DNA of 64,000 nucleotides from an uncultured Chloroflexia bacterium (GTDB lineage: Bacteria; Chloroflexota; Anaerolineae; JAAYZQ01): positions 160,001 through 224,000 of the forward strand of contig CAVOXA010000005.1 of the NCBI GenBank assembly GCA_963700285.1. Reading direction: 5' to 3'. Shown piece by piece: positions 36,398-53,547 of the stretch; within the stretch, counting starts at the first letter, position 1, and every line of letters begins with the position of its first letter. Made by a program: the position numbers and the translations under genes. A model generated the notes under the pieces. It ran no database searches. It saw only the letters and a list, made by a program, of their open reading frames with translations, and had not been told where the DNA came from.

Positions 36398-37789
36398 TTA
36401 TCCCAAAAGCAGATAGGGATTCTCCACCAACTGCTTGACCCGCTGTAGAAAGCGGGCCGCCGGCGCGCCGTCGACCAGCCGGTGGTCAAAGACCAGGCTC
36501 AGTGTCCACATCTGCCGTGCCACGATCTCGCCCTCGCGCACTACTGCCTTGGGCAGGATCCGTCCCGCGCCCAGGATGGCCGCTTCCGGCAGGTTGATGA
36601 TGGGCGTAAAGGCGTCCACGTCGTACATGCCCAGGTTGGTGATGGTAAAGGTCCCCCCGCTCAGGTCGTCGGGCAGCGACTTGCCCACCCGGGCCCTATC
36701 CACCAGCGCCCGGAATTCGGCGCCAAAGTCACGCAGACCCTTCTGGTCCGCGCCACGGATGACCGGCACCAGCAAGCCTCGCTCCGTGTCGACGGCCATG
36801 CCCACGTTGATGTAGGGCAAGTGCTCCAGGGCTCCTCCATCCTCACTGAGGCGAGCGTTCATGTAGGGGAACTCGCGCAGCGCCCGGGCGACGATAACAC
36901 CCAGCAGGTCGTTATAGCCCGGCGCAAAGCCCCACTCCTCGGTGACCGCGGCCTTGAGCTGCTCTCGCGCCTCCACAAAGGCGCCGGCGTCGGCCTCGGT
37001 AACCAGGGTCACGCGGGCCGTGGCTGCGTCGCTGGCCGCCATGCGCTGGGCGATGATGCCTCGCAGACCGGCCATCGGGACCTGCCGGATGCTTCGCTCC
37101 CCGGGTACAACAGCCGGTAAACTGGCCGGAACCGCGGCCGGCATCTCAACCGCTGGCGCAGGAGACTGGGCGGCGGCTTCTACATCCACTTTGGTGATGC
37201 GCCCGCCGGGCCCGGTGCCTGTCACCGCGGCCAGATCCACACCCAGGGCGCCGGCTGTCTTGGCGGCCACGGGCGTAACCTTGGGCCTAGAGGCCGCGTG
37301 GTCCAGGACGTCCTGCTCGACGATGCGACCGTTGGGACCGGTGCCGGTCACCAGGGCTAGGTCGATGTCCTGCGCTCGCGCCGCCTTGCGCGCCCGGGGC
37401 GAGGCAAAGATCCGGCCCGTGGACCGTACAAGGCCGGCTTCAATGGCTGTGGTCGCAGGTTCAGCGCTTTCATCTGCAGGTTCTTCTCCGGCGATTTCTG
37501 CCGTTGTAGTTACCGCTGCCGCGGCCCCATAGGACGAGATATCCTCGTCGGCCTCGCGGGTGATGAGGGCCACCGGGGTCAGTACCGGCACGACTTGTCC
37601 TTCCGGCACCAGGATCTTGCGCAGAAAGCCTCGCGCCGTGGCTTCGACGTCAAGGACCGCCTTATCCGACTCGACGGTGAAGAGCAGGTCGCCGCGTTGG
37701 ATGGGATCGCCTTCCTTCTTGACCCACTCGACGACAGAACCTTCTTCCATGGTTTGGCCCAACTTGGGCAGAATAACCTCAGTGATCAT
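36398..37789 (-). CDS. Dihydrolipoamide acyltransferase (E2)
   Basis: Lipoyl VESDKA, two subunit-binding repeats (GTGPNGRI, GTGPGGRI), FDHRLVDG. Confidence 0.95.
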   Translation of the reverse strand: MITEVILPKLGQTMEEGSVVEWVKKEGDPIQRGDLLFTVESDKAVLDVEATARGFLRKILVPEGQVVPVLTPVALITREADEDISSYGAAAAVTTTAEIAGEEPADESAEPATTAIEAGLVRSTGRIFASPRARKAARAQDIDLALVTGTGPNGRIVEQDVLDHAASRPKVTPVAAKTAGALGVDLAAVTGTGPGGRITKVDVEAAAQSPAPAVEMPAAVPASLPAVVPGERSIRQVPMAGLRGIIAQRMAASDAATARVTLVTEADAGAFVEAREQLKAAVTEEWGFAPGYNDLLGVIVARALREFPYMNARLSEDGGALEHLPYINVGMAVDTERGLLVPVIRGADQKGLRDFGAEFRALVDRARVGKSLPDDLSGGTFTITNLGMYDVDAFTPIINLPEAAILGAGRILPKAVVREGEIVARQMWTLSLVFDHRLVDGAPAARFLQRVKQLVENPYLLLG

Positions 37790-37792
37790 GGC

Positions 37793-38563
37793 TCATTTCC
37801 CCTCTGTGTTGGCTTTGGCCAGGGCCGCAGCCGTGGCTGCCCAGTCGGCGACAAATTGCGCTACCCCGATCTCTGTCAGTGGATGCGTGATGGCCTTCTT
37901 GAGCACAGAGGTGGGCACAGTTGCCACATCCGCGCCGATCATGGCCGCCTGGGTGATGTGGATGGGGTGCCGCACGCTGGAGGTGATGATCTTGGTGTCA
38001 AAGCCAAAGTTGTCGAGAATGGTGCGGATGTCGGCGATGACGTCCATGCCCTCGTTGCCGGCGTCGTCCAGCCGCCCAACAAAGGGCGACACGTAGGTGG
38101 CGCCGGCTTTGGCCGCCAGGAGCGCCTGGTTTGCCGAGAAAACCAGGGTCACATTAAAGCGTATGGCTTCCTCGGTCACGATCTGGCGCGCCCTTTCGAT
38201 GGGGGTGGCGCACTGGCCCTGCCAGGGGCAGCCGCTGCAGATGCTCACCGGGTCCGCATGGCGGCCGCGCAGCGCCTTGAGGGCCTTGAGCCCCTCTTCG
38301 ATGAAGGGGATCTTGACCACGACGTGGGGCGACCACTGGATGATCTGCAGCGCTTCGTCGATCATGTCCTGCGCGTCCGTGCCGATCACCTCGGCACTGA
38401 CAGGCCCCTGGACCAGGTAGCAGACCTCCTGGACGACTTCTTTATAGTCCGTGCGGCCCACCTGGGCCATCAGACTGGGATTGGTCGTCACCCCGTCAAT
38501 GATGCCCAGGCCCACCATTTCGCGGATCTCGTCGATGTTGGCGGTATCTAGAAAGATTATCAT
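37793..38563 (-). CDS. tal: Transaldolase (small Tal/FSA subfamily) with Cys-rich insertion
   Basis: FLDTAN, GVTTNPS, PVSAEV, VKIP, YVSPFVGRLDD. Glu/Phe pair is transaldolase-type. Confidence 0.85.
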   Translation of the reverse strand: MIIFLDTANIDEIREMVGLGIIDGVTTNPSLMAQVGRTDYKEVVQEVCYLVQGPVSAEVIGTDAQDMIDEALQIIQWSPHVVVKIPFIEEGLKALKALRGRHADPVSICSGCPWQGQCATPIERARQIVTEEAIRFNVTLVFSANQALLAAKAGATYVSPFVGRLDDAGNEGMDVIADIRTILDNFGFDTKIITSSVRHPIHITQAAMIGADVATVPTSVLKKAITHPLTEIGVAQFVADWAATAAALAKANTEGK

Positions 38564-38669
38564 TCACCTTCTCCCTTCTGAACAAGCATGTCGCCTGAGG
38601 GTTGATGACGGACGATGGACGGCAGACGAAAGAACCTGCATCCTGCTTCCGGTCGTCTTGCGCCTGTCG

Positions 38670-40755
38670 TCACCGAAGCACCTGGCGGATGCCGGCGATG
38701 ATGGACTCTACGTTGGGAATCGCCGCGTCTTCCAGGGTTTCGCTCATGGGCACAGGTACGTCGGCCGCTGCCACGCGCACCACCGGCGCGTCCAGCCAGT
38801 CGAAGACCTCCTCCTGGATGCGCATGGCCAGCTCGCTGATAAAGGAGCCGGTCTTGTAGGCTTCGGTGACGCCCACCACGCGCCCCGTCTTTTGCACCGA
38901 AGCGGCGATGGTCTCCATGTCCAGCGGCTTCAGGGTGCGCAGGTCGATGACCTCGACGCTGATGCCCTCCTCGGCCAGCTTTTCGGCCGCTTCCAGGGCG
39001 CGGTGCACCATGCGCGAGTAGGTGACCACCGTCACGTCGGTGCCCTCACGCTTCACGTCGGCCACGCCGTAAGGGAATGACATAATCCTCCTCGGGCACG
39101 TAGCCCTCGACGCCGTAGAGCATCTTGTGTTCGATGAACATGACCGGGTTGTCGTCGCGGATGGCCGCCTTGAGCAGTCCCTTGGCGTCGTAAGGGCGTG
39201 CTGGGCATGACGACATAGATGCCGGGAAAGTGGGTCCACAGGGCTTCCAGGCTCTGGGAGTGGTGGGCGGCGATGCTCCGCCCGGCGCCGCCCTCGGTGC
39301 GGATGACCATGGGCACGATGGTCTTGCCGCCAAACATGTAGCGGTTCTTGGCTCCCTGGTTGGCGATCTGGTCCATGGCCAGCGGCGTAAAGTCGACGTA
39401 CATGATCTCGGCGATGGGCCGCATGCCGGCCATGGCCGCGCCCACGGCCGCGCCGCCGATGGTCGCCTCGGAGATGGGCGTGTCGCGCACGCGCTCCGCA
39501 CCGAACTCGTCGAACAGGCCCTCGCGTGGCGCCATAGGCGCCGCCATAGAGGCCCACATCCTCGCCCATGATGAACACGCTGGGATCGCGCTGCATCTCC
39601 TCCCGCGGCCGCCTCCCGAGCGCCTCACGATAGCAGGATCTTGCGCGTGCCCGGCCCGCCAGCGCGGCATCTCTCGCGGAGCTCTCGCTCCTTGGCATAG
39701 TCCGCCTCAGTCCACTTGAAGGGCGCGTAGACAAAGTCCTCCAGCTCCTCGGCGGGCGGGCATGGCCGAATCGAGGGCAAACTCGGTCGCCGTCGTCAAT
39801 GGCGTCTTCGACCCGCTACCTCGAGCGCATCGATCTCCTCCTGGGTGCAGACGCCCGTCTCCACCAGCCAGGCGGCAAAGTTGGGGATGGGATCGCGGGC
39901 CTTCCAGGCGGCTTCCTCCTCCTTGGTGCGGTAGGCACGTGGGTCGGAGCGGGAGTGGCCATACCAGCGATAGGCCTGGCACTCGATGAGGGAGGGGCCT
40001 TCGCCCCGGCGGGCGCGCTCGACGGCCTGGCCGACCGCCTCGCGGACCGCCAGCACATCCATGCCGTCCACCACCACACCGGGCATGTCGTAGGCGCAGG
40101 CCCGGTCGGCGATGTCCAGCTTGGCCGCGGCCTTTTCCAGAGGGCACCGACATGCCGTACAGGTTGTTTTCCACGATGTAGACGACGGGCAGGTTCCACA
40201 GCCCGGCCATGTTCAGCGACTCGTGAAAGTTGCCGGTCTGCGACGCGCCGTCGCCAAAGAAGCAGAGGACGACCCGGTCGGTGCCCTGCATCTGCTGCGC
40301 CAGCGCCGGCGCCGGTGGCCACCGGGATGTTGCCGCCCACGATGCCGGTGGCGCCCAGGTTGCCCTTCTCCACGTCGGCGATGTGCATCGAGCCACCCCG
40401 GCCCAGGCAGTAGCCGGTCTCGCGGCCGCACAGCTCGGCCATCATCTTGTCATAGTGTTCCTGCTTGGCCTCTTCGGTCTTGGCGATGACTGCGCCCCGG
40501 GCGTGGCAGTGCCCGTGGCCGCGGTGGGTGCTGGTGATCAGATCGTCGTCGCGCAGGACCGAGATGGCGCCGACGGCGACGGCCTCCTCGCCGGCGTAGA
40601 GGTGTGAGGCGCCCTTGATGATGTTGCGCCCCAGCAGGTCGTAGACCCGGTCTTCGAACATGCGGATCTCCCACATCTGTCGCAGCAGGTCCAGGGCCTG
40701 TTCTTTGCTCAGTCCATGGTGCTTCTGAAAGCAGTTTGGTTCTCTCTTCAGCCAT
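38670..40755 (-). CDS. TPP-dependent acetoin/pyruvate-dehydrogenase-like E1, alpha and beta apparently fused, several 1-nt frameshifts
   Basis: Alpha: [25 protein letters not shown]. Beta: [19 protein letters not shown]. An open linker joins them. Confidence 0.8.
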
Positions 40756-40774
40756 TGTTCTCTCCTTGCTCTCA

Positions 40775-41946
40775 CTGTGGATTTGCTGTACAAATTGGAT
40801 GATTCCTCGCTTGCCATTGATCAACCAGGTGGGATCCTCTTCCGCCAGCGCTTCCGCTTGACCAGGCGCCAGACCCACCATGATTTCTCCCTTCAGCGTG
40901 CGCAACACCAGCAAGGGCGCTGGGAAGTAGTTGGCAACCTCTTCCATCGCGCTGTATCGTGCGGCCAGTGGCGATCGTCCAGCAACCGCCGGTAGTTTAC
41001 GTCCCCTTTGAGAATCACCAGGTCGGATGAACTCAGTTCCGCGCGCAAAGGCGCCGGCATCTGGTCGAACATCAGGCACTGAAGTCCAAAAGGGGTCGTC
41101 TTCAAGTCCGAGCGCGCCAGCAGCCAGATGCCGGGCCAGGCGCTCTCCCAGTGGTTCTGCCGGTAGTAGTGCCAAAAGGTGCCGCACGTCCTGGGGCATT
41201 GCATCGGAGACAAAGAAGGGCCGGCTCTTGAGGTGAAAGACCACCCTGCGCGTCCAGCCTTGCTTCAGTAGAAAACTGGCGAATGCCAGGTCAAAGAGCA
41301 GCTCCAGCCCGGCGTTGTCATTGATGAAATCGATGCGGCCCACACCGGCTGACAGCAGGCCGGCCACCTTTTTCGTGTGATCGATGAGGATGTTGTGGCG
41401 CTCCCTTCGGGTGGCCAGACCTCCCTGGGCCTGCTCGCGAATGGTACTATTGCTCAGATCGGCGCGATTGCCCCACAGGCAGGAATGGAGGTAGGCCACA
41501 AAGAGCTCATCTGGCGCGGCGCCGGGAAACTGTCCCCAGTTGGCTGCCAACCAGGCCACGGTGGCCTGGCTCAGCTTTTGTTTCTGCAGCCCAAAAGGGT
41601 CCTGGCCCTGCCATGGGCCGGGCTCAAGGTAGCGCACCACTTCCAGCAGGCGCCGATAAAAGTAGGACTCGGCCAGATACCAGGGTAGGTCCAGCCAGGT
41701 GTTGCCCTCATAGGCAGCCAGTTCCTGGTTCCACAGTGCCGCATCCGGGTCTGATGCTGCGAGCATCTGGACCGGCTCCTGGGCGATCTCCCGCCCAAAG
41801 GCTTCCAGTGTCCATATAATGTCTATCGGATAGCCATTATCCTGGATGACCTGGGCAATGATCTGGGGCTTGCGCTCGACAATCGTGGCGCGAGCAAATG
41901 AGCCAGGCTCGGAAGTCATCAAGAGTGGCGGCTGGCCGTTATTCAC
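40775..41946 (-). CDS. ARMT1/DUF89 damage-control phosphatase, frameshifted
   Basis: LWGNRADLS, NDNAG, PFFVSD, KGDVNYRRL, RTLKGE. 3' end uncertain. Confidence 0.85.
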
Positions 41947-43426
41947 TGGCCACTTCTCTCTGGCTCAGCCGCAGGTACCGATCGTATGCTTCGTCCCAGG
42001 CGGCCGATTGTTTGGGCTCAAAGGTCGTGACCTCAAAGGAGCGGCGGACCAGGGCCCGGCCTTCGGCCAGGGACTCGATCTGGCCCAGAGCCAGGGCTTG
42101 GACCAGCACATTGCCGATGGCCGTGGCCTCTACCGGACCGGCGACGACCGTTTGGCCCGTGGCATTCGCGGCGAACTGGTTCAGCAGGCCATTCTGCGAG
42201 CCGCCACCGAATATGTGGAGTACCGGCAGCGGATGGCCGACCATCTCGGCCAGGTGTCCGGCCACCAGCCGGTACTCCATGGCCAGGCTCTCCAGCACGC
42301 AGCGAATGATCTCTCCCTTGGATTGCGGCACGACCTGACCGGTCTCCTGGCAGTAGCTCCGAATGCGGGCGGGCATGTCGCCTGGCTGCAGGAACCGGCT
42401 GTCGCTGGGAGCAATGATGGCAGCAAAGGCCGGCGCCTCCGCAGCCATGCGGGTCAGGTCGTCATAAGAATAGGCCCCGCCCGCGCGCGCCCACTCGCGC
42501 CGGCACTCCTGTACCAGCCACAGGCCCATGATATTCTTCAGAATGCGGAACGTGCCTTCGACGCCACCCTCGTTGGTCAGATTGTACTCCAGGCTTCGGC
42601 TATTGATGATCGGTTCCTTGGTTTCTACACCCATGAGCGACCACGTGCCGGAGCTGAGGTAGATGTAATCCGCACCCTGTGCGGGAACAGCCGCCACCGC
42701 GGAGCCAGTATCGTGGCCTGCCGTGGCGACAATGGGGATCGATGGGCTGCTTGTTTCCCTGGCCACCTGTGGCAGTAACTCACCCAGTACTGTGCCCGGC
42801 TGTACGATCTTGCACAAGAAAGCGGTGGGAATGCCCAGCTTTTCCAGCATGCCGCGGGCCCAGTCGCCCCGGCGGGGATCGTAGCACTGGCTTGTCGTGG
42901 CGATGGTGAACTCGCTGGCCTGGCGACCGCTCAGCCAATAGTTGAATAGGTCAGGCATGTTCAGGAAAGTTCGGGCAGCGTCCAGCAAGGGGGAGCCAGC
43001 CTGGGCCATGGCCAGCAATTGGTACAGGCTGTTGATCTGCATGAACTGGATGCCCGTCCGATCATAGATCTCGGCGCGAGGCACGATTTTGAATGCCTCT
43101 TTCATCATGCCATCGGTGCGGCTGTCACGGTAGTGGTAGGGATTGCCCAGCAGCGCACCATCTTTTGCCAGCAAGCCAAAGTCCACGCCCCAGGTATCCA
43201 GGCCAATGCTGGCGAGCTTGTGGCCGTAGGCGCTGGCAGCCTGGCCCAGGCCTTGTTTGATCTCGCTCCACAGACGCAGAACGTCCCAATGCAGGCTGCC
43301 CAAGACCTGCACGGGCCCGTTGCGGAAGCGGTGTACCTCCTCCAGGCGCAGGCGCTCGCCGTCCATGTGTCCCACCACGGCGCGCCCGCTTTCTGCACCA
43401 AGGTCAAGGGCCAGGTATTTGCTCAT
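41939..43426 (-). CDS. rhaB: Rhamnulokinase
   Basis: LALDLGAESGR, DTWGVDFG, YHYRD, SSGTWSLMG, NEGG, GPVEATAIGN. Confidence 0.9.
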   Translation of the reverse strand: MSKYLALDLGAESGRAVVGHMDGERLRLEEVHRFRNGPVQVLGSLHWDVLRLWSEIKQGLGQAASAYGHKLASIGLDTWGVDFGLLAKDGALLGNPYHYRDSRTDGMMKEAFKIVPRAEIYDRTGIQFMQINSLYQLLAMAQAGSPLLDAARTFLNMPDLFNYWLSGRQASEFTIATTSQCYDPRRGDWARGMLEKLGIPTAFLCKIVQPGTVLGELLPQVARETSSPSIPIVATAGHDTGSAVAAVPAQGADYIYLSSGTWSLMGVETKEPIINSRSLEYNLTNEGGVEGTFRILKNIMGLWLVQECRREWARAGGAYSYDDLTRMAAEAPAFAAIIAPSDSRFLQPGDMPARIRSYCQETGQVVPQSKGEIIRCVLESLAMEYRLVAGHLAEMVGHPLPVLHIFGGGSQNGLLNQFAANATGQTVVAGPVEATAIGNVLVQALALGQIESLAEGRALVRRSFEVTTFEPKQSAAWDEAYDRYLRLSQREVASE

Positions 43427-43465
43427 AATCATCCCCCACTACAGCCTGCCTCACCGGACTGGCAG

Positions 43466-44257
43466 CTAGCGCATCTCCTGGCCGCCCGTGACATTGATCG
43501 CCTGGCCGGTCATATAGCCTGCCTGCTCCGATGCCAGGAATACCACCACGTTGGTGATGTCATCGTAGGTACAGCCCCGCTTCATCGGCACCTGGTCGAC
43601 GTATTTCTGGCGGACCTCCTCCTCGGTGATCCCCCACTTTTTCGCGTACTGGCCGTAGAGCGAGTCTACCCACAGGGGCGAATCCAGCAGGTTGCCAGGG
43701 CATATGGCGTTGGCCCGTACGCCATACTCGGCCAGCTCCAGCGCGATGCTCTGGGTCAGACCAATGCCGCCGAACTTGGAGGCTGCGTAGGCGGAATTCT
43801 TGTAGCTGCCCTTCTTGCCCGATTTGGAGTTGATCTGGATGATGCTCCCGCTGCGCTGGCCCTTCATTACGCGCGCTGCGTGCTTGGCGCAGAGAAAATA
43901 ACCAACCAGGTTGACGTCGATCACCGCTCGCCACTTTTCGACCTGGAATTCGTCCACAGCCCCGGCGAGTAGAATGCCGGCGTTGGAGACCAGGATGTCC
44001 AGCCGGCCAAACTCGTCCACTGCGCGGTCGACCATGGCCTGGACTTGGTCCTCGTCGGTGACGTTTACGCCGATGCCGATGGCGCGATGGCCCGTCTGGG
44101 TCAGGATCTCGCTTGCTGTGTGCTCCGCGCCTTCCTGATTCAGATCGGCGACAACCACGTGAGCGCCTTCGCTGGCCAGCCGCAGGCAGATGGCCGCACC
44201 CAGCCCCTGCGCTCCCCCGGTCACCACCGCGATCTTGCCCTCCAAGACTCTGCCCAT
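43466..44257 (-). CDS. Sorbitol-6-phosphate-dehydrogenase-like SDR
   Basis: TGGAQGLG, IQINSKSGKKGSYKNSAYAASKFGG, GNLLDSPL, TGQAINVTGG (SrlD/SorD-like). Confidence 0.85.
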   Translation of the reverse strand: MGRVLEGKIAVVTGGAQGLGAAICLRLASEGAHVVVADLNQEGAEHTASEILTQTGHRAIGIGVNVTDEDQVQAMVDRAVDEFGRLDILVSNAGILLAGAVDEFQVEKWRAVIDVNLVGYFLCAKHAARVMKGQRSGSIIQINSKSGKKGSYKNSAYAASKFGGIGLTQSIALELAEYGVRANAICPGNLLDSPLWVDSLYGQYAKKWGITEEEVRQKYVDQVPMKRGCTYDDITNVVVFLASEQAGYMTGQAINVTGGQEMR

Positions 44258-44318
44258 TCCGTTCACTCCTTACCTATCACGCAGCACGTATTACGCACCA
44301 CGCAATACGCACCACGCC

Positions 44319-46091
44319 TCACGGCAGCATCTGCCTCAGGAATTCCTCTTCCGCTTCCACCGTCCACTCGCGCCCATCGCGCAGCTTGGCATAGACACTG
44401 GGCAGTGTTTCCTGGAGATCGGCCAGCGCGGTGAGGGGCATCTCTTTGATGTTGGGAAAGATGACGACCTTGCCCGGGAATGCGGTGTCTTGCACGGCCT
44501 GGAGGCCATCCCGGGCGGCACCCAGTGAGCCAATGGCGGCGACGGACCGGTTGGGCGACAGTTGCCCAGACTCGGCTTGGCCCAACATCAGCCGCAGGTC
44601 GTCGATGGTGGAGGCCGAGTGCCCGATGACGCGGGCGTCCTTGATAAAGGTGTCGCTCAGATCGAGATCGACCATCGTGCCCCGGGCCACACCGGCAAAG
44701 ACATTCATCACGCCCCCGGCAGCCAGATAGGTGGCCGCGTCGGCAATGACCGCCGGCACGGGCGCCAGCACAATGATGTCGTCAAAGCCGGCATTGTCGC
44801 CGGTCGCCTTGAAGCGGGCCATGCCGGCCTCGTAGCCATCCCGGTTCAGGGGGTTGAGACAGAGCCAGTCGATGCCCTTGGCCTCCGCTTCCGCGGCAAA
44901 GCTGGTGCACAGGTCATCCAGGCGCAGGTCGCTGACATCGGTGCAGACGATGGTCCCCGGACCATCGTGGGCTTGGATGGCCCGTTGGACGTGCATCCTG
45001 CCCATCGGCCCGCCGGCTCCCACGAACCAGGTTCGTCCGCCCGGTTTGAGCGAGGACCGTACCGGCACGTCGTTGTAGGCCCTGGCGATGTCGGGCTTGC
45101 ATCCGCCTACATAGACCCAGCGGTTATAGTGCACGCGCCCCACGTCCACGGACACCTTGCGCGACAGGGGGGTGTCGGCGATGATGGCCACGACACCGAG
45201 GTCAGCCAGATGGGGGCTGACGGTCTCGATGACATCGGCGTCTGCGCCCAGAACGACAACATCGTCCACGGGGGTCACCAGTGGCGTAGCCAGGTCCTCA
45301 ACTTGCAGTACCTCTATACCCAGAGCGGCTGCGCGTTGAGCAAGCCAGAGGGAAAAGCCAGCGGGAACATTACTCAATAGCAGGCGGCTGGGGTGCGACT
45401 TGGCGTCAAAACCGGCGCTGATGGTATAAGCTGGCTCCAGAGCAGAGCCAAGGCTAAGGTCCGCCGCAGGGTCCGCAGTGATCTGGTTCGAGGCGCCAAT
45501 GATCCAGGTCGTACCGCCGGCTTTAAGCCCGGTACGATAGGTCAGTCCATAGGCGGCGATCACGCAGGCCCAGGGTTCGGTCAGCGCAGATTCGGCATAG
45601 CCCGTATCGTCCTGGACGGGAATCAAATAGTTGCCGTCGTCGCCGTCCAGGATGCGTTGGTCAATGACCCCATACTGGGACAGACCGCCCTGGATCTCGT
45701 AGCCATAGGCATAGCCGATGCCGTCGACAAAGATATCAGCCTGGATGATAAAGCGGTCACCGACGTGGTACTGGTTGCGCAGGTTTTCGCCTACGCCGAC
45801 CACGGTCAGGCTCACCTCGTGGCCCAGTGTCACAGGATCGGCCCGCATGTCGCGATAGATGCGAGGGTGATCGGGGCCAAGGCGGATGACCTTGATGTCG
45901 GAGAAGCATAGTCCGGTGGCATCATGGCGTACGAGCAACTCGTCGGGGCCGTACTCGGGCATCGGGACCACGATGGGCTGTGAATTTTCGCCCAGGTTCT
46001 CCAATCCTGCTCCGTAGAGGGGCCAGAGGCGGTTTTGGTCGGGCAGTGCTACACTGGCGGTCCTGTACCTAGTTAGTTTGTCCTCTGTCAT
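44319..46091 (-). CDS. Zn-dependent MDR, L-sorbose-1-P-reductase-like, elongated (590 aa)
   Basis: LYGAG, GLCFSD, GHE, EPWACV, GAGGPMG. Confidence 0.8.
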   Translation of the reverse strand: MTEDKLTRYRTASVALPDQNRLWPLYGAGLENLGENSQPIVVPMPEYGPDELLVRHDATGLCFSDIKVIRLGPDHPRIYRDMRADPVTLGHEVSLTVVGVGENLRNQYHVGDRFIIQADIFVDGIGYAYGYEIQGGLSQYGVIDQRILDGDDGNYLIPVQDDTGYAESALTEPWACVIAAYGLTYRTGLKAGGTTWIIGASNQITADPAADLSLGSALEPAYTISAGFDAKSHPSRLLLSNVPAGFSLWLAQRAAALGIEVLQVEDLATPLVTPVDDVVVLGADADVIETVSPHLADLGVVAIIADTPLSRKVSVDVGRVHYNRWVYVGGCKPDIARAYNDVPVRSSLKPGGRTWFVGAGGPMGRMHVQRAIQAHDGPGTIVCTDVSDLRLDDLCTSFAAEAEAKGIDWLCLNPLNRDGYEAGMARFKATGDNAGFDDIIVLAPVPAVIADAATYLAAGGVMNVFAGVARGTMVDLDLSDTFIKDARVIGHSASTIDDLRLMLGQAESGQLSPNRSVAAIGSLGAARDGLQAVQDTAFPGKVVIFPNIKEMPLTALADLQETLPSVYAKLRDGREWTVEAEEEFLRQMLP

Positions 46092-46142
46092 GGCTATGTG
46101 CTCCTAATCTGATCTTGTCCCACCCCTACTGGCATGTGGCTG

Positions 46143-47498
46143 TCAGCTCCGCAGGCCGGACAGGAACCTGGCCGGGGGCTGTGCTGGATCCATCTGCCCA
46201 AGACGCTCCACACTGGCGCTCCCGGGCGGGATCAGGCGACCGGCCTTTGAATAGAACTCGTTGCGCTGGCGCCGAGCGGGAAGGTAGGCTGCGGCCCACT
46301 CGCTCTGGTAGCCCAGTCTGAGGGTTCGCTGCAGCATGGTGTGGCCATAGATGAAATAGGCCCCATCCAGGAAGGACTGGCGCACGGGCGCCAGCTCCGG
46401 CGCATCAAAGTCATCGACGAGCTTCTGGCCAAAGCTGTTCAACTCGGTGCCAATGTTCAGGGGCAGGTCCCGCTCCTGGGCCAGCTCGACCACGCGGTAG
46501 AGGTTCTGCACCTTCCGGCGGCGCGTTTCCGGATCCTGGATGTTCCAATTGCGATCGGGAATGATGTTTAGGGCTACCACGCCCTTGTCGATCAGGAAAC
46601 CCAGCCAGTCCTCCATGGCCTCTTCGGTGGCCGTGGTCCCGTCCAGGAAGGCGCAGCAGGGCAGGGCGCCGCTGGCCACGATCAACTCGTGGAAGGATTC
46701 AAGGGTGGGAAACATGCCCGAATCGGGCTGGACATAGCCCACACCGCCGCGTTTCATCAGTTTGGCGCGGATCAGATTCTGGAAGGCCGCCGAATCGCAC
46801 AAGATGGCGGTCACCTCATCGGCTGCGACGCCCAGCTTGCCGGCCCAGAATACCGCCGGGTCGGGAACCATTCGCTCCGCGGCCCGGACGTAGGCCAGAA
46901 CCATGTGCCGCTCGGTAGGATTGCCCGCCGGGGTCAGGGGCTGGACGTCGCGCTCATAGTCAACGGTGACCGGATCGAGGTAGGCGTTGACCCGGGCCAG
47001 GATGCCGCGGTTGCGCTCAGCCGCCCGCTGGCCCAGGCCGGCCAGGATGGTGGCGACGGCCTTGGGCACCTGGCTGGTGGTAAAGCCAATGCCCATGTGA
47101 TAGCAGACCCCAGGCTCGCCTGGCGAGTTGATCTCTTTGGTTCCATACTCGGGCACAAAGACGCGTGACTCGATGCCGGCGCTGCCCCGTACACCCAGGG
47201 TCTCACAAGCGCCCAGGAATTCGTCCACGCCCTTGAGCACGTCAAAGTCCACAATGCCGGCCGCCCTGAATCCTTGCTGCTTGGCCAGCCAGGCCAGCGA
47301 CGCCGGCGAGTGACCCAGCGCATTGAAGGAAAAAAAAGTGTGGAGGTGCATGTTGACCACATCGGTCTCTGGCTCCAGCCGGATCCTCCCTTTTTTGGTG
47401 AGGAGCGCCAATTCCTCGAGGCTCTCGCTTCGAAGGCTGGGGTCATAGCTATCCAGATGCGTCTCAAGTTCGCCGACTCGTTCCATGGCCTCTGTCAT
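46143..47498 (-). CDS. PHP-like metal-binding protein of unknown function
   Basis: NMHLHTFFS, GIVDFD, GIE, YHMG, ERH. Confidence 0.65.
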   Translation of the reverse strand: MTEAMERVGELETHLDSYDPSLRSESLEELALLTKKGRIRLEPETDVVNMHLHTFFSFNALGHSPASLAWLAKQQGFRAAGIVDFDVLKGVDEFLGACETLGVRGSAGIESRVFVPEYGTKEINSPGEPGVCYHMGIGFTTSQVPKAVATILAGLGQRAAERNRGILARVNAYLDPVTVDYERDVQPLTPAGNPTERHMVLAYVRAAERMVPDPAVFWAGKLGVAADEVTAILCDSAAFQNLIRAKLMKRGGVGYVQPDSGMFPTLESFHELIVASGALPCCAFLDGTTATEEAMEDWLGFLIDKGVVALNIIPDRNWNIQDPETRRRKVQNLYRVVELAQERDLPLNIGTELNSFGQKLVDDFDAPELAPVRQSFLDGAYFIYGHTMLQRTLRLGYQSEWAAAYLPARRQRNEFYSKAGRLIPPGSASVERLGQMDPAQPPARFLSGLRS

Positions 47499-47517
47499 CC
47501 CTCTTCCATCCAAGGCT

Positions 47518-48297
47518 TCATACCAATTCTACCTCTATCCTTTGCTGGCGCAGGGCAGCGATCATCTCTGGCGGCGCGGCGCTATCGGTGATCACCTGGT
47601 CCAACTGATCCACAGAGGCCAGCGAGGCAAAGGTGACCTGGCCCCATTTGCTGCTATCCACGACGGCGATGACTTTTTTGGACCGTTCGACCATGCGCTG
47701 CTTCAGTTCGACCTCGTACTGACTGGTGTCGGTCAGACCTTCCTCCAGGGTGAAGCCACCGGCGCTAAAGAAGCCTTTCTGCACGTGATAGCGCTCCAGG
47801 ATGCAGGCACCCTCATCACCCACCAGCGAGGCGGAGGCGGCGCGCAGCGTGCCCCCAGGCATGACGACGGTGACGCCTGGCGAATCAACGAACTCGAGGG
47901 CGGTGAACAGGCCATTGGTCACCACGGTCAGCTCATGGCGGTCCTTGAGATGGCAGGCTACCTGCCAGGCGGTCGTGCTTGCATCGAGGGCAATGGCGTC
48001 GCCGTCGCGGACCAGCGCAGCGGCTGCCTGCCCTATCCGCTGCTTCTCGGACAGGTGCAGCTCTTTGCGCAAGGCAAAGGCAGGGAGGTCCGCTGTGTGG
48101 TTGTTCCTGAGGACGGCGCCGCCGTGGGTGCGTACCAACCGGCTCTGCTGGTACAGGGTGGCCAGGTCGTTGCGAATGGTAACGGCGGAGACATCGAACC
48201 TGTCGCTGAGTTCAGAGACGGAGACGCGCCCTTGATCCTGGAGGATGGCCAGGATCTGATCCAGTCGCTCTTGAAGGTAAAGCTTCTCCGACATCAC
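47518..48297 (-). CDS. DeoR/GlpR family transcriptional regulator
   Basis: VSAVTIRNDL, RTHGGA, LDASTT, VVTNG, DSSK. Confidence 0.95.
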   Translation of the reverse strand: MMSEKLYLQERLDQILAILQDQGRVSVSELSDRFDVSAVTIRNDLATLYQQSRLVRTHGGAVLRNNHTADLPAFALRKELHLSEKQRIGQAAAALVRDGDAIALDASTTAWQVACHLKDRHELTVVTNGLFTALEFVDSPGVTVVMPGGTLRAASASLVGDEGACILERYHVQKGFFSAGGFTLEEGLTDTSQYEVELKQRMVERSKKVIAVVDSSKWGQVTFASLASVDQLDQVITDSAAPPEMIAALRQQRIEVELV

Positions 48298-48304
48298 CCG
48301 TGGG

Positions 48305-48379
48305 CTTTCATTTACTTTCGAATAATAGTGTTACTCTTTCAATTTCCGGAATGGTACCACAGAACGAAAGCGGTGTCAA
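48305..48379 (-). promoter_or_regulatory. Promoter of the deoR sub-operon with putative direct-repeat operator
   Basis: TTGACA-17 nt-TACCAT (48379-48351) with extended -10. Three GAAAG repeats downstream. Confidence 0.7.
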
Positions 48380-48525
48380 AGGCGAGTCGGGCCAATGACA
48401 GCCAGCCCGCATACCGGGAGGTCCTTGCAGGCTGGGAGCGGTTGCTGCGCTCTCTGCTTGAGTAACTGCTGCTGCCAGATTGCTGTCTTGGTGCTACAAG
48501 GTCAAGATGCCGGTGCTCCGGTGGC

Positions 48526-49290
48526 TTATCCGCTCCCCCACTCCTGGCGGCGGTACAGCTCGTCGGGACGGGTGTGGATGCGGGCTACGGCTTCTGGGCT
48601 CAAAAAGTGGAGGCCGCCCAGCGCGTAGGCGCCAATGATGACCCGGGCCGTCTTGACGTACATGGCCGTGATGTTCTCCACTTCGGACGCCGTCTTGCCA
48701 AAGGCGATGAGGCCGTGGTTCTGCATCAAGAGCACCTTGGGGACCTCACGGTACTCATTGAGGTATGCGTCGATGGCGTCGCGCACGGCCTGGGCCAGAG
48801 GCAGGCCGGGATCGGTGTAGGGCACGTAGACAGGAGCCAAACCGCAATAGACGATCTCATCGGGGAAGAGGCGTCCGGCGATGGCCTCCTCCGCCTTCTG
48901 TGAACAGAGGATGGCATTGACGGCGGTGGGGTGGGTGTGGCCCACAAAGTTGACTCCCTCCAGGCGCAGCGCCAGGGCATGCAGCACGGTTTCCACCGAA
49001 GGCCGGGCCGTCGCTTCGGGGTCAACGCGGGCCGCTTCCAGGCCGGCCCTGACCTCGTCGTCGCCCAGCTCGTCCGCTTCCAACAGGGATAGCACCCGGT
49101 CGAATCGAACTCGAACCAGGCCGCTGGCCTCGATGGTGCGCATCTCAGCGCCGCTGGCCTTCACCCAGAAGGTATCGGCATCCGCTTGCGCCGACGAATT
49201 GCCTTCACCCAACATGGCATAATCGTTGGCCGGGTCGCCCAGGTTTCGCGACATGGCGATCAGTTGTTCAAGGATCTGGTTGTTTGTCAT
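48526..49290 (-). CDS. Class II aldolase/adducin family, probable rhamnulose-1-P aldolase
   Basis: GEGNSS, KASG, RPSVET, HTHP, NHG. Confidence 0.85.
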   Translation of the reverse strand: MTNNQILEQLIAMSRNLGDPANDYAMLGEGNSSAQADADTFWVKASGAEMRTIEASGLVRVRFDRVLSLLEADELGDDEVRAGLEAARVDPEATARPSVETVLHALALRLEGVNFVGHTHPTAVNAILCSQKAEEAIAGRLFPDEIVYCGLAPVYVPYTDPGLPLAQAVRDAIDAYLNEYREVPKVLLMQNHGLIAFGKTASEVENITAMYVKTARVIIGAYALGGLHFLSPEAVARIHTRPDELYRRQEWGSG

Positions 49291-49441: not shown

Positions 49442-50726
49442 TTAGACCCGTCCTGCTAGTTCCTGCTTCTCGTAGGCCTTGATCTCGTCCATGAAGCCAA
49501 AGCCAACCGGCACATCCTGCTGCAGGCAGTAGGCAGTCCCAGACCGCGCCAAAGGGCAGGCCCTTTAGTTCTTCCAGCAGCGCCAGCCGGGCGGAATAGT
49601 CGCCGCCACGCTCCATCTCGCGCATCGTCTCGATGGGCTCCAGCAGGGCCAGCAGCAGGGCCCGCAGCGCGTTGCGCGTGCCGATGATCCAGGCCGCCAC
49701 GCGGTTGATGCTGGCGTCGAAAAAGTCCAGGCCGATGTGCACCCGCTCCAGGTAGTCGCCGCGCACGATCTCCTGCATGATGGCCTGCAGCTCGTCGGTG
49801 AGGGTGACCACGTGGTCGCTGTCCCAGCGCACGCCGCGGCTGACGTGCAGCAGCACCTCGTCGACATAGAGCAGCACCGCCGAGAGCTTGTCCGAGATGA
49901 CCTCGGTGGGGTGGAAATGCCCGCTGTCCAGGCAGAGCAGCACGCTCGATTGGCTCGACGGCGTAGCCCAGGTAGAACTCGTGCGAGCCGACGACATAGC
50001 TCTCCGAGCCGAGGCCAAAGAGCTTGCACTCCACGGCGTCCAGGTTGTAGCTGGGCTCGATGCGCTCGGCCAGGATGGCGTCCAGCGACTCTTTGAGCAG
50101 CCGGCGCGGCGTCTTGCGATCCACCGGCGTGTCCTTGAAGCCGTCGGGGATCCAGATGTTGGTCACGCAGGGCGTGCCCAGCTCCCGGCCAAAGTGCTCG
50201 CCGATCTTGCGGCAGGCGATGCAGTGCTCGATCCAGAACTGGCGGACGCCCGCGTCATAGCTGGCCAGCGTAAAGCCGTCGTCGGCCAGGGGATGCGAGA
50301 AAAAGGTCGGGTTAAAATCGAGGCCGTGGTCGTTGTCCCTGGCCCAGTCGACCCAGCCGGCAAAGTGCTCGGGCTGGAGCTCGTTGCGCTCGACCTGCTT
50401 GCCGCCCGTCTCGGCATAGATGGCGTGCAGGTTGAGCCGGTGCGTGCCGGGGATGAGGCTGTAGGCCATGTCCAGGTCGCCGCGCAGCTCGTCGGCGTTG
50501 CGCGCCTTGCCCGGATAGTTGCCGGTGGCGGCGATGCCGCCGCTCAGCTCGGCGTCGGGCGATCTCGAAGCCGGCGACGTCGTCGCCCTGCCAGCAGTGC
50601 AGGCTGATGGGGATCCGGGCCAGGGCCGCCAGCGCCTGCGTCGGTGTCGACGCCCAGCGCGGCGTAGCGCTCCCTGGCCAGGGCGTAGGCGCTCTGTATC
50701 TGTCCTTCTGTGGGTTGGTTGCTCAA
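49442..50726 (-). CDS. rhaA: L-rhamnose isomerase, frameshifted
   Basis: [62 protein letters not shown]. Confidence 0.92.
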
Positions 50727-50831: not shown

Positions 50832-51935
50832 CTAACCATAGACCCCATGTTTCTTCACCGCGGCGATAAAGGTCTCGACATTCTCCATCGAGGTATCCGA
50901 CTGGATGATGTGGGCCGGGGAGCACATGTAGCCGCCGCCTTCTCCCAGTACCCGGATCTTTTCGGCGACGTCGGCCTCGATCTCCTCGGGAGGAACCGTA
51001 GGGCAAGAGGTGCTGCTGGTCGATGGCCCCCCAGAAGGAGAGGCTGTCGCCGAACTGGCTCTTGAGATCCTCTGGCTCGTGGCCGGGCACGTTGGGCTGG
51101 ACCGGGTTGAATACTTCCAGGCCGACCTCGATCCAGTCTCCCAGAATGGGGGCTACCGCGCCGTCGCAGTGCTGCATGATCATCAGGTTGGGGTTGACCG
51201 ACTTTAGTTCGGAATAGATCTCTCGGTAGGGCTCTTTGAAGTACTTGCGCCACATCCTGGGTGAGATGAGCATGCCGTTCTGGCCCCCAAAGTCGTCCCC
51301 GGCCCAGACGCCGTCGACACCCATCGAGACCAGCTTCTTGCCGATGGCCAACGAAAAGTTTTTTGTCTTTTCGATCAATGCCGGTACATAGTCCTTGCCC
51401 ATGGCCATGTCGATCAGCAGCTTTTCCATGCCCACCGCCAGGTGCATCAGGTCGAACATGGACAGCTCCATGTCACCGATGACAAAGTACTCGCCCCCGT
51501 ACTTTTCGATGTACATGGCCGCGTCGTCGTAGCGGCCCTCGGCCAGGGGATCTGGGAATTCGAATGCCTCCACGTCCGCGGCCGTCTCAAAGTGGGCCAT
51601 GGGCGGGGGGGCAACGACCTCCATGTAGACGGGCCCCTGGCGCAGCCTCATCTTGAACTCGTTGATGACATAACCATCGTCATCGATGGGATGTTCGTAG
51701 CCCCGGGGCAGGCAGCGCCGACGATGACACAGTCGCTGCCCATGGCCACGCGCAGTTCGTTGGCTGACAGGCGGTAGGTAAGGTCCTCGTAGCAGGCGGC
51801 GGTATAGTGCACGGGTATGCCGAGCTTGGCTCCAAAGGCGTCCAGCAGCGAGCGGCACAGATCAAACTGCAGGGGCACCCGATCGGTTGTACCCGTTCGC
51901 CGCAATGCTGTCAATACACGTTCTTTTGAGTTCAT
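50832..51935 (-). CDS. Uroporphyrinogen-decarboxylase/MtaA superfamily protein, frameshifted
   Basis: MNSKERV...DRVP, GDDFGGQ, HCDG, NPVQP, FWGAID, GGGY...AHIIQ. Confidence 0.85.
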
Positions 51936-52001
51936 GCTGTGTCCTCCCTTTGATGGAGACGTGCAACGCACGTTGCAACGTACGTTGCACGGGTGCTTGG
52001 G

Positions 52002-52325
52002 TCAATCCAGGTGAAAGACTTCCTGCAACTCGATCATGCTCTCGTCGGCGTGGGCGCCGTCCAAGCCTTCAAAGTAGGGCGCCATGAAATCCTGCCATTT
52101 GGCATTCACCTCTTCCTCCGCCATCCCATCCAGCGCGGCCTGAAAGCCTTCCGGCGTCTCAAAGTAGCCAAAGAGCAGGCCGTCGTCCCGCAAGAAGAGG
52201 GAGTAGTTGTGCCAGCCGGTCCGCCGCAGGGCATCGAGCATTTCAGGCCAGACTGCTTCGTGGTGCTCTCTGTATTCCTCCAGTTTGTCTTCCTTCACTT
52301 TGAGCAAAAACCCCACCCGCTTCAT
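52002..52325 (-). CDS. rhaM: L-rhamnose mutarotase
   Basis: YREHHEAVWPEM, HNYSLFL, LFGYFE, EVFHLD. Confidence 0.92.
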   Translation of the reverse strand: MKRVGFLLKVKEDKLEEYREHHEAVWPEMLDALRRTGWHNYSLFLRDDGLLFGYFETPEGFQAALDGMAEEEVNAKWQDFMAPYFEGLDGAHADESMIELQEVFHLD

Positions 52326-52560: not shown

Positions 52561-53547
52561 CTACTCTCTGCTCATTACCTCCAGCACTGCGTCAATGATG
52601 TCCTGCTCTTTCGGCAGAGCCTCCAGCTCCAGCGGGCCGCTGTAGGGCAGGGGCACATCCTCAGTGGCGACCTGCATGATGGGTGCGTCCAGCCAGTCGA
52701 AGGCTTCTCGCTGCACCCGAGCGGCTACCTCCGCCGTGAAGCCGCCGGTCAGGTGCCCCTCGTTGACCACGACCAAGCGCCCGGTCTTTTGCACTGAGTG
52801 AATGATGGGCTCCATGCCCAGGGGCTTGAGCGTGCGGGGATCGATGACTTCGGCCTCGATCCCGTGGTTGGCCAGGTACTCTGCCGCATTCAGGGCAAAG
52901 AGCACCATGCGCGACGTGGCGACGATGGTCACATCTCGGCCGGCGCGCTTGACGTCGGCCACGCCGATAGGGATCAGGTACTCCTCGTCAGGCACGGGCC
53001 CGGTGCTGTTGTAGAGCAGCTTGTGTTCAAGAAAGACCACCGGATCGTCATTGCGGATGGCTGACTTGAGCAATCCCTTGGCGTCGTAGGGCGTGGCAGG
53101 CTGGATGACGATCAGGCCCGGGATGTGGACGTACCACATCTCCAGGGACTGGGAGTGCTGGGCGGCATTGCCGCGCCCACCTCCACCCTGGGCGCGTACG
53201 ACCATTGGTACCTGGGCCTTGCCCCCAAACATGTAGCGGGCTTTGGCCGCCTGGTTGACGATCTGGTCCATGGCCAGGGTGCTGAAATCGACGTAGAGGA
53301 TCTCGACGACGGGGCGCAGCCCGGTCATGGCCGCGCCCACGGCGATGCCGGTAAAGCCCGCCTCAGAGATGGGTGTGTCGCGTACCCGCTTCTCGCCGAA
53401 CCTGTCGTACAGGTCCTTGGTGACCTGGAACGGGCCCCCGTAGCGGCCAATGTCCTCCCCAAATACGCAGATGGAAGGATCGCGGGCCATTTCCTCGTGC
53501 AGAGCCTCGTTGAGGGCATCCACGTAGCGCAGTTCACGCATGGTCAT
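52561..53547 (-). CDS. TPP-dependent dehydrogenase E1 beta (AcoB/PdhB-like)
   Basis: [27 protein letters not shown]. Confidence 0.92.
   Translation of the reverse strand: MTMRELRYVDALNEALHEEMARDPSICVFGEDIGRYGGPFQVTKDLYDRFGEKRVRDTPISEAGFTGIAVGAAMTGLRPVVEILYVDFSTLAMDQIVNQAAKARYMFGGKAQVPMVVRAQGGGGRGNAAQHSQSLEMWYVHIPGLIVIQPATPYDAKGLLKSAIRNDDPVVFLEHKLLYNSTGPVPDEEYLIPIGVADVKRAGRDVTIVATSRMVLFALNAAEYLANHGIEAEVIDPRTLKPLGMEPIIHSVQKTGRLVVVNEGHLTGGFTAEVAARVQREAFDWLDAPIMQVATEDVPLPYSGPLELEALPKEQDIIDAVLEVMSRE

Follow-up and report, generated by a model that had tools for sequence, protein, structure and literature searches.

How is L-rhamnose taken apart by an operon that encodes, beside a class II aldolase, enzymes that move a carbonyl group along a sugar phosphate and an E1/E2 pair of the 2-oxoacid dehydrogenase type? 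The question is raised by positions 36398-49290 of a 64,000-nucleotide stretch of contig CAVOXA010000005.1, from an uncultured Chloroflexia bacterium; we call the whole stretch the window. Among the major sugars of pectin, ulvan, fucoidan and mucins are rhamnose and fucose, whose methyl end is carried to propanediol or lactate by the phosphorylated routes known so far. Our preferred reading, held with somewhat better than even confidence, is that a PHP-fold protein, a SorE-like reductase, an SrlD-like dehydrogenase and E1/E2 components dependent on thiamine diphosphate (ThDP) and lipoamide form a module. It would carry out C3 epimerisation, carbonyl migration and ThDP/lipoamide cleavage, converting 6-deoxy-L-ketohexose-1-phosphates to acetyl-CoA and D-erythrose-4-phosphate. 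The lower half of the operon is likely to replace the usual split into dihydroxyacetone phosphate (DHAP) and lactaldehyde. Gene families, linkage and exclusions were observed, and from them each substrate and product below is predicted.

Linkage, exclusion and replacement in related genomes

A preliminary description of this locus had combined carbonyl migration with ThDP/lipoate cleavage and pointed to gene neighbourhoods as its test. That scheme is borne out in part: the gene linkage holds, and the chemistry is still a prediction. The PHP-like, SorE-like, SrlD-like and E1/E2 genes are found together with genes of both rhamnose and fucose metabolism, and the module is mutually exclusive with the fused aldolase-dehydrogenase RhaEW. 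We compared the best 80 of at least 521 loci with PHP-like relatives in GTDB genomes, almost all from Chloroflexota. A SorE-like gene occurs in 62 of these, a class II aldolase in 47 (some loci have two), E1 in 30, RhaB in 28, E2 in 24, RhaA in 23 and ARMT1 in 10; an SrlD-like gene occurs in 56, a count that may take in other short-chain dehydrogenases/reductases (SDRs). Many of the 80 loci end early. Where at least 9 kb is available on both sides (32 loci), SorE-like and SrlD-like genes are each found in 28, and E1 and E2 each in 15. The same set recurs in a distant subfamily from another genome group, in three of the seven regions around weak matches; there the PHP-like gene is about 25% identical, the aldolase and SDR are fused, and E3 is confirmed in one region.

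Accessory genes in the 80 loci include dehydrogenases resembling those for mannitol-1-phosphate (14), galactitol-1-phosphate (21) and glycerol-1-phosphate (5), and in some loci a 1-phosphofructokinase-like kinase replaces RhaB (such loci are L031, L052, L054 and L135-L139; L033, L040 and L095; L068 and L080). These genes suggest further entry substrates, for example fucitol or rhamnitol.

Exclusion was assessed in 141 genomes of the class to which a related Anaerolineae genome belongs. The sample was centred there because a sample of the assigned phylum did not match the PHP-like relatives: its 300 genomes held four distant relatives and no close one. The best PHP-like relatives are from Anaerolineae, at odds with that phylum sample, and the tool's placement of our genome may be off. 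Among the 141 genomes, 34 have the PHP-like gene, 49 the SorE-like gene, 48 a module-type E1 (at least 63% identity, the next matches being at most 54%; 12 genomes with weaker matches only were left out), 17 FucI, 24 RhaA and 36 RhaI. RhaEW exceeds its cut-off in 16, one further genome below the cut-off being left out.

The associations are tight. PHP-like genes are accompanied by SorE-like genes in 33 of 34 genomes, and module-type E1 in 42 of 48, with E1 in only 6 of the 92 SorE-negative genomes. All 17 FucI genomes encode the PHP-like protein or a relative of the epimerase EryC, and 16 of them the SorE-like protein. The 60 genomes with a rhamnose isomerase (RhaA or RhaI) divide into 40 with the module, as marked by the SorE-like gene, 16 with RhaEW, none with both and four with neither; the module E1 is likewise present in 35 of the 40. 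Not one of the 49 SorE-positive genomes had RhaEW. We use these counts as patterns, without p-values, because the genomes are kin and their completeness is not given.

The function of the PHP-like protein is suggested by what takes its place. The PHP-like gene is missing from 16 SorE-positive genomes; 13 of them have an EryC relative, often in the same slot, and one gene or the other is present in 46 of 49 SorE-positive genomes. Close EryC-like members (E <1e-100) occur in 13 of the 141 genomes, all of them SorE- and E1-positive and PHP-negative; 7 of the 13 supplied rows to the EryC-like profile and 6 did not, and four weaker matches (E 1e-39 to 1e-53), three of them in PHP genomes, were set aside. 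We also fetched 20 lower-identity SorE-like loci for comparison. In seven fetched loci from PHP-negative genomes an EryC-like barrel lies upstream of the SorE-like gene, adjoining it in four and separated by one gene in three; the usual order is RhaI, aldolase, EryC-like barrel, SorE, SrlD. A reading of the PHP-negative genomes as 'fucose-only' was dropped, as their loci carry RhaI and the EryC-like gene. To place the EryC label on a FastTree built from 79 SorE-like proteins requires five changes, three of these being forced by well-supported branches. We found no match to the EryC-like gene in the window's own genome, which is 89% complete.

The EryC-like protein belongs to PF01261 and has a xylose-isomerase-like TIM barrel; in the PDB it is matched best by 4k3z (E 3e-34), which we take to be EryC under its older name. 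Its Rhizobium match sits in an operon of kinase, glycerol-3-phosphate dehydrogenase, barrel, tpiA and rpiB, the erythritol layout. EryC is a D-erythrulose-1-phosphate 3-epimerase in the available text of PMC10733421, and a figure legend of PMC11508834 labels it a 'tetrulose-4-P racemase'. Because an EryC relative replaces the PHP-like gene, we predict the PHP-like protein to be a C3 epimerase. The preliminary description had named it as one of two candidates for such a role; the replacement is independent support for it, with the activity itself a prediction. That the PHP-like protein works like EryC is a claim from displacement, not from homology.

Genes of the run and their products

The genes named in the preliminary description are all present within 36398-49290, in the order claimed and all on the minus strand. 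The run and its upstream neighbours are as follows.

36398..37789, minus strand: E2 dihydrolipoamide acyltransferase (PF00364, PF02817 twice, PF00198)
37793..38563, minus strand: TalC-type transaldolase (TIGR00875)
38670..40755, minus strand: fused E1 alpha-beta (ThDP), frameshifted; its pieces share 63-78% identity with an intact relative of 697 aa
40770..41946 (lower end approximate), minus strand: ARMT1/DUF89 sugar-phosphate damage-control phosphatase, frameshifted, accessory (PF01937 in two frames)
41939..43432, minus strand: RhaB-like rhamnulokinase (TIGR02627, 519 bits)
43466..44266, minus strand: SrlD-family polyol-6-phosphate 2-dehydrogenase (PRK12384, 382 bits)
44319..46091, minus strand: SorE/YggP-related Zn-dependent medium-chain dehydrogenase/reductase, predicted ketose-1-phosphate reductase (26-28% identical to SorE)
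46143..47513, minus strand: PHP-fold protein with altered metal site, predicted ketose-1-phosphate 3-epimerase (fold comparison)
47518..48297, minus strand: DeoR-family repressor, RhaR-like (PF00455, PF08220)
48305..48343, minus strand: tandem TGAAA/TCGAAA repeats resembling a RhaR operator (sequence)
48351..48379, minus strand: sigma-70-type promoter-like site, TTGACA-17-TACCAT (10 of 12 matches)
48526..49290, minus strand: class II aldolase, RhaE type, stand-alone (PF00596)
49460..50720 (ends approximate), minus strand, upstream of the run: L-rhamnose isomerase RhaA, frameshifted (PF06134 in two frames)
50838..51971, minus strand: frameshifted UroD/MtaA-like protein with counterparts in related loci (PF01208)
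52002..52325, minus strand: L-rhamnose mutarotase RhaM (PF05336)

Because rhaA, the UroD-like gene and rhaM lie upstream, we regard the run as a rhamnose operon. The alpha and beta parts of E1 are fused in a single gene of about 697 codons, which this assembly breaks into at least six pieces. ARMT1, rhaA and the UroD-like gene (product 77-84% identical to a relative, spread over three frames) are disrupted in the same manner, and E3 and fucI on other contigs are similarly broken. Short-read contigs of relatives, compared at E1, lack single bases at 39191, 39606, 39634, 39757, 39783, 40145, 40306 and elsewhere; the listed pieces are about 88-99% alike, from a strain that is not identical. As the extra bases are missing from close relatives' contigs, the E1 frameshifts point to assembly errors, probably long-read insertion errors.

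The E1 belongs to a module-specific clade in a quick tree built from relatives and carries the GDG...NN ThDP motif. E2 has a lipoyl domain, two E3-binding domains and a catalytic domain with HRLVDG (the HxxxDG motif). It falls below the equivalog cut-offs for the pyruvate dehydrogenase (PDH), 2-oxoglutarate dehydrogenase and AcoC enzymes (TIGR01349 334 versus 445 bits; PRK14875, AcoC, 87 versus 307). E3 is absent from the operon; matches in the genome are on other contigs only and are frameshifted. Acetoin dehydrogenase cleaves a methyl-ketol to acetyl-CoA and an aldehyde, the type of reaction that we propose here.

The SrlD-like SDR exceeds the sorbitol-6-phosphate 2-dehydrogenase cut-off (PRK12384, 382 versus 307 bits), its best solved relative is PDB 5o3z (E 1e-77; next 1e-46), and it is just 30% identical to Klebsiella SorD; we predict that it oxidises a 1-deoxyhexitol-6-phosphate. 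The SorE-like protein is 26-28% identical to annotated SorE (E 8e-19), with which it shares the Zn ligands C62, H91, E92 and E172, and 30% identical to YggP. It does not fit the SorE profile of about 410 aa, a single Rossmann domain and a sorbose phosphotransferase system (PTS) operon: it has 590 aa and a duplicated Rossmann region, both halves of which align to SorE residues 167-309, and there are no PTS genes in the window's gene cluster. The second Rossmann region (residues about 190-330) is degenerate and lacks the GAGGPMG motif; a regulatory or second binding domain is possible. A SorE-like paralogue (37%) lies at C14:101515-103209 amid UroD-like genes and a kinase. The RhaB-like kinase scores 519 bits against a TIGR02627 cut-off of 528, and 116 with the fuculokinase model.

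The aldolase finds its best NCBIfam matches in the N-terminal domains of RhaEW-like aldolase/SDR fusions; it is a stand-alone protein and at 79 bits is far below the RhaEW cut-off (TIGR02632, 568). Its residues E100, H118, H120 and H192 are conserved in a comparison of 41 relatives. Transaldolases are marked by a Glu/Phe active-site pair. The window's transaldolase, the genome's single match of its type, scores 270 bits with TIGR00875 (cut-off 246), and its SAEV and YVSPF motifs are identical to those of the solved 1vpx and 3r8r; these motifs rule out a fructose-6-phosphate aldolase that releases hydroxyacetone. An insert of about 30 residues (about 100-130), Cys-rich with CxxCxxxxxC and absent from solved transaldolases, possibly forms a metal or Fe-S site.

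The PHP-like protein matches PF02811 below the cut-off (E 7e-5). Its structure model (predicted local distance difference test score, pLDDT, 85) resembles RNase AM 9etk (Z 21.2, root-mean-square deviation 3.1, 271 residues aligned) and 3o0f (Z 20.9), with 2yb1 found by Foldseek (E 9e-9); by this modelled structure, it has the PHP barrel fold of the TrpH/RNase AM subfamily. Residues H56, H58, E115, H203, E357 and N359 are kept across 43 diverse relatives. The full PHP metal-ligand set is not present: D89-F90-D91 aligns to D-H-D of 3e0f, and Phe replaces the His of the PHP phosphatases in 39 of the 43. E357-x-N359 presumably corresponds to the terminal D-x-H motif. A search of plasmids gave no PHP-like match, a metagenome scan with one divergent PHP-like protein returned its own locus only, and a protein atlas gave unnamed or PHP-labelled clusters only.

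The promoter that the preliminary description placed before deoR has a counterpart in TTGACA-17-TACCAT at 48379-48351, although such sites are no commoner than in shuffled sequence. With three promoter-like sites in 16.5 kb versus 3.3 in shuffles, site frequency carries no weight, and the candidate promoter is backed only by its position, its orientation and similar sites before most related deoR genes. After it come the repeats TTGAAAG, TCGAAAG and TGAAAG, the second and third at a distance of 11 bases. RhaR of Chloroflexus aurantiacus has a tandem operator with consensus TCGAAA and L-rhamnulose as effector, as given in the available text of PMC3870299. The repeats before deoR resemble this operator, and similar ones are found before most related deoR genes, of which 22 have upstream sequence.

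Further genes surround the run. Upstream of rhaM, at 52561-54554 (minus strand), there is a second E1 alpha/beta pair, this one split, accompanied to about 57300 by SDR, cupin and metallo-beta-lactamase-fold genes; such a pair also precedes rhaM in L035, L041 and L043, and it clusters separately from the fused E1s. Another E1 pair, elsewhere in the genome at C14:317435-322057, lies after an isomerase-like barrel gene and one that by eye resembles a RuBisCO-like protein. UroD/MtaA-like genes are recurrent (for example in L034, L056, L079 and L095), two types in 10/80 and 11/80 loci and a third in 6/80; they might serve the O-demethylation of methylated deoxy sugars.

A candidate route and its rivals

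By family assignment, RhaM, RhaA and RhaB would yield L-rhamnulose-1-phosphate. The PHP-fold protein would invert C3, as the EryC replacement suggests. Following SorE and SrlD chemistry, the SorE-like enzyme would reduce C2 and the SrlD-like enzyme oxidise the old C5, giving a 1-deoxyketose-6-phosphate. From this the fused E1 and E2, with an E3 from elsewhere, would split off the acetyl group in acetoin-dehydrogenase style, and erythrose-4-phosphate would be consumed by transaldolase and transketolase.

The stereochemistry can be followed on paper. Cleavage of the acetyl group makes the old C4 the aldehyde and leaves the old C3 and C2 as stereocentres. With a SorE-type reduction, rhamnulose-1-phosphate and fuculose-1-phosphate lead to D-threose-4-phosphate and their C3 epimers to D-erythrose-4-phosphate. 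Since D-erythrose-4-phosphate arises only after C3 inversion, a ketose-1-phosphate 3-epimerase is the single extra step required. Correction at both C3 and C4 had been called for earlier; the need at C3 stands, and that at C4 falls away with its conversion to the aldehyde.

L-fuculose-1-phosphate, inverted at C3, would become 6-deoxy-L-sorbose-1-phosphate, SorE's natural substrate in 6-deoxy form, and then 1-deoxy-D-fructose-6-phosphate; FucI is encoded on another contig of this genome. Rhamnulose-1-phosphate would join the 6-deoxy-L-sorbose-1-phosphate pool through aldol cleavage and re-condensation at C4 by class II aldolases, or would proceed via the psicose/allitol series, both options finishing at D-erythrose-4-phosphate. 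The re-condensation passes through lactaldehyde and therefore could leak to propanediol.

Several observations weigh against this route. The strongest, at least for batch culture and for the route as main flux, comes from Caldicellulosiruptor saccharolyticus, which on rhamnose makes propanediol, acetate, H2 and CO2 at 1:1:1:1 (available text of PMC4187192). Propanediol at 1:1 leaves no room for a major flux through the proposed steps in those cultures, and for them it contradicts the earlier statement that the route spares the methyl end from loss as propanediol. The aldolase could just release lactaldehyde, since its catalytic-type Glu and three His are kept. The transaldolase, which the preliminary description had included in its scheme, is in none of the 80 related loci and is ruled out as a core member of the module. 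The EryC-like proteins are just 25-31% identical to their rhizobial plasmid matches; a more distant EryC-like protein stands beside the PHP-like gene in 3/80 loci (L042, L066, L074), and a distant EryC-like gene is found elsewhere in 3/34 PHP genomes. Seven of 49 SorE-positive genomes have no module E1, possibly as incomplete metagenome-assembled genomes. RhaEW was scored on seven candidates per genome, without a tree, and kinship among the genomes means that the exclusion counts overstate independence. Two bacterial microcompartment (BMC) shell loci lie elsewhere in the genome, at C10:1507600-1513100 (L150) and C1:864000-868000 (L149); one has an acylating aldehyde dehydrogenase, DeoC and RpiB, and the other a class II aldolase. 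The statement that lactaldehyde and microcompartment genes are missing holds for the window, then, but not for the genome. Iron-dependent alcohol dehydrogenases are also encoded, below the FucO cut-off (best 347 versus 523 bits), and with the BMC loci they make lactaldehyde disposal elsewhere in the genome possible. No RhaEW above 568 bits (TIGR02632) was found in this genome.

The Caldicellulosiruptor cluster, matched to the module by published gene labels only, supplies the rival that survives best, although we judge it unlikely. In C. saccharolyticus, Csac_0865-0876 is induced by rhamnose and tracks growth on it, with the role of its other genes given as unclear (available text of PMC4187192). 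The C. bescii cluster comprises FucA, RhaD1, a hypothetical protein, SrlD, SorE, LipB, LipA, E2, E3, E1, DeoR and RhaA, and in 2021 its dehydrogenase Athe_0702-4 was proposed to act on lactaldehyde (available text of PMC8579813). Applied here, the aldolase would give DHAP and L-lactaldehyde, E1/E2/E3 would oxidise the lactaldehyde, and the SorE-like, SrlD-like and PHP-like proteins would serve a side purpose. The retained aldolase residues E100, H118, H120 and H192 agree with this, as does the propanediol from C. saccharolyticus, which implies that lactaldehyde forms (PMC4187192, same text), and the exclusion of RhaEW would fit any substitute for lactaldehyde disposal. This reading gives no role, however, to the most tightly linked enzymes, those acting on sugar phosphates (33/34), or to the EryC-like replacement; SorE and SrlD carry the tag 'Sorbose?', without an assay, in the available text of PMC8579813.

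PMC4510573 contributes a label only, and Caldicellulosiruptor yields are not given in the available text of PMC13067940, PMC8600716 and PMC11365079. The cluster has been noticed in print, but the available texts of PMC4187192 and PMC8579813 do not explain it by the present route. We found no description of that route in the literature searched, which left most subscription journals outside; we consider it an undescribed combination of known chemistries.

A second alternative, also improbable, dispenses with the prior C3 inversion: cleavage would give D-threose-4-phosphate or L-erythrose-4-phosphate, and the PHP-like or EryC-like protein would act later on the four-carbon product, or as a phosphatase. 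The fold is of the PHP phosphoesterase type, the known substrate of EryC has four carbons, and at just 26-28% identity to SorE the SorE-like enzyme may differ in stereo-preference. Against this, tetrose salvage via EryC needs TpiA-like and RpiB-like isomerases, which are not recurrent in the loci; one would hardly expect an epimerase-family protein to take the place of a phosphatase, and the metal-binding His is Phe in 39/43 relatives.

Still less probable is a path through formaldehyde with the same net reaction. Lactaldehyde would be converted via propanediol to acetol, which E1/E2 would cleave to acetyl-CoA and formaldehyde; the aldolase would join formaldehyde to DHAP as D-erythrulose-1-phosphate, and C3 inversion and the SorE-like and SrlD-like enzymes would then yield D-erythrulose-4-phosphate. 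This scheme uses the natural substrate of EryC, keeps the aldolase in the pathway and makes propanediol an overflow product; RhaD and FucA do make D-erythrulose-1-phosphate from formaldehyde and DHAP, with EryC needed next (available text of PMC10733421). Yet it requires a propanediol/acetol oxidoreductase and an RpiB-type isomerase, neither of them constant in the loci, and a dehydrogenase that passes the sorbitol-6-phosphate dehydrogenase cut-off indicates a six-carbon substrate.

We give little credence to a split RhaEW, in which the aldolase and SDR would lead to lactate, the Zn enzyme to pyruvate, and E1/E2 would be an ordinary pyruvate dehydrogenase. The distant subfamily's aldolase-SDR is fused in RhaEW architecture (TIGR02632, 294 bits versus a cut-off of 568) and pyruvate dehydrogenases are the closest solved E1 relatives, but the SDR scores as SrlD, E2 lies under the PDH cut-offs, the module E1s form their own group in a genome with several other E1 sets, and the epimerase is left without a role. 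Least credible of all is salvage of non-deoxy sugars taken by RhaA/FucI (L-galactose, L-mannose, D-arabinose, L-lyxose) with E1/E2 unrelated: C3 inversion does turn L-tagatose-1-phosphate into L-sorbose-1-phosphate, the start of textbook SorE/SrlD chemistry, and module E1 is missing from 7/49 SorE-positive genomes, but E1 is present in 42/49 of these versus 6/92 SorE-negative ones, and the RhaEW exclusion puts the module in the main rhamnose job, salvage being still conceivable as a side activity.

Whether the epimerisation and cleavage sequence constitutes a widespread new phosphorylated route for L-rhamnose and L-fucose, with a PHP-fold ketose-1-phosphate 3-epimerase and a dedicated 2-oxoacid-dehydrogenase-type cleavage to acetyl-CoA and erythrose-4-phosphate, is in our estimate evenly balanced. 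If so, no other lower rhamnose pathway would be as common in Anaerolineae (40/60 rhamnose-isomerase genomes). Six of six sugar carbons would reach central metabolism, with about 3.7 ATP per sugar versus 2 for the propanediol route by our own arithmetic, and more NADH; the higher NADH cost would suit low-H2 syntrophic or respiring conditions. It would also mean a new activity for the PHP fold and a sugar-phosphate substrate for an E1/E2 complex, and would explain a rhamnose-induced Caldicellulosiruptor cluster left unexplained in print since at least 2013.

Relation to known systems

Csac_0865-0876 and Athe_0695-0706 resemble the window, by the labels in the available published text, in two class II aldolases, a hypothetical protein, SrlD, SorE, E1, E2, DeoR and RhaA. 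They differ in having lipA, lipB and E3 inside the cluster, and in a SorE 54% identical to Klebsiella SorE, much closer than here. RhaEW occupies the same place in Chloroflexota rhamnose operons under a similar DeoR operator, and the aldolase resembles its N-terminal domain, but RhaEW yields DHAP and lactate (available text of PMC3870299).

Like the acetoin dehydrogenase complex AcoABCL, the window encodes a ThDP E1 and a lipoamide E2, with a predicted methyl-ketol cleavage to acetyl-CoA and an aldehyde. Here, in contrast, E1 is fused, E2 is far below the AcoC model, the operon has no E3, control is by DeoR and the predicted substrate is a sugar phosphate. With the L-sorbose pathway it shares a homologous reductase and dehydrogenase (SorE and SorD/SrlD) and an identical net shift of the carbonyl from end to end; it differs in the absence of a PTS, the feed by RhaA/RhaB, the duplicated Rossmann region and a predicted 6-deoxy substrate.

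The TrpH/YciV (RNase AM) phosphoesterases are the best structural matches of the PHP-like protein (2yb1, 9etk, 3o0f) and share its HxH and following Glu. Identity to them is 16-18%, with D-F-D for D-H-D and family-specific SPGEP, TERH, IIPDRNW and GTE-x-N motifs in the window protein. EryC, whose relative occupies the PHP-like protein's place in 13 genomes, has a xylose-isomerase-like barrel rather than a PHP fold, and our predicted substrate has six carbons; the proposed inversion at C3 of a ketose-1-phosphate is common to both.

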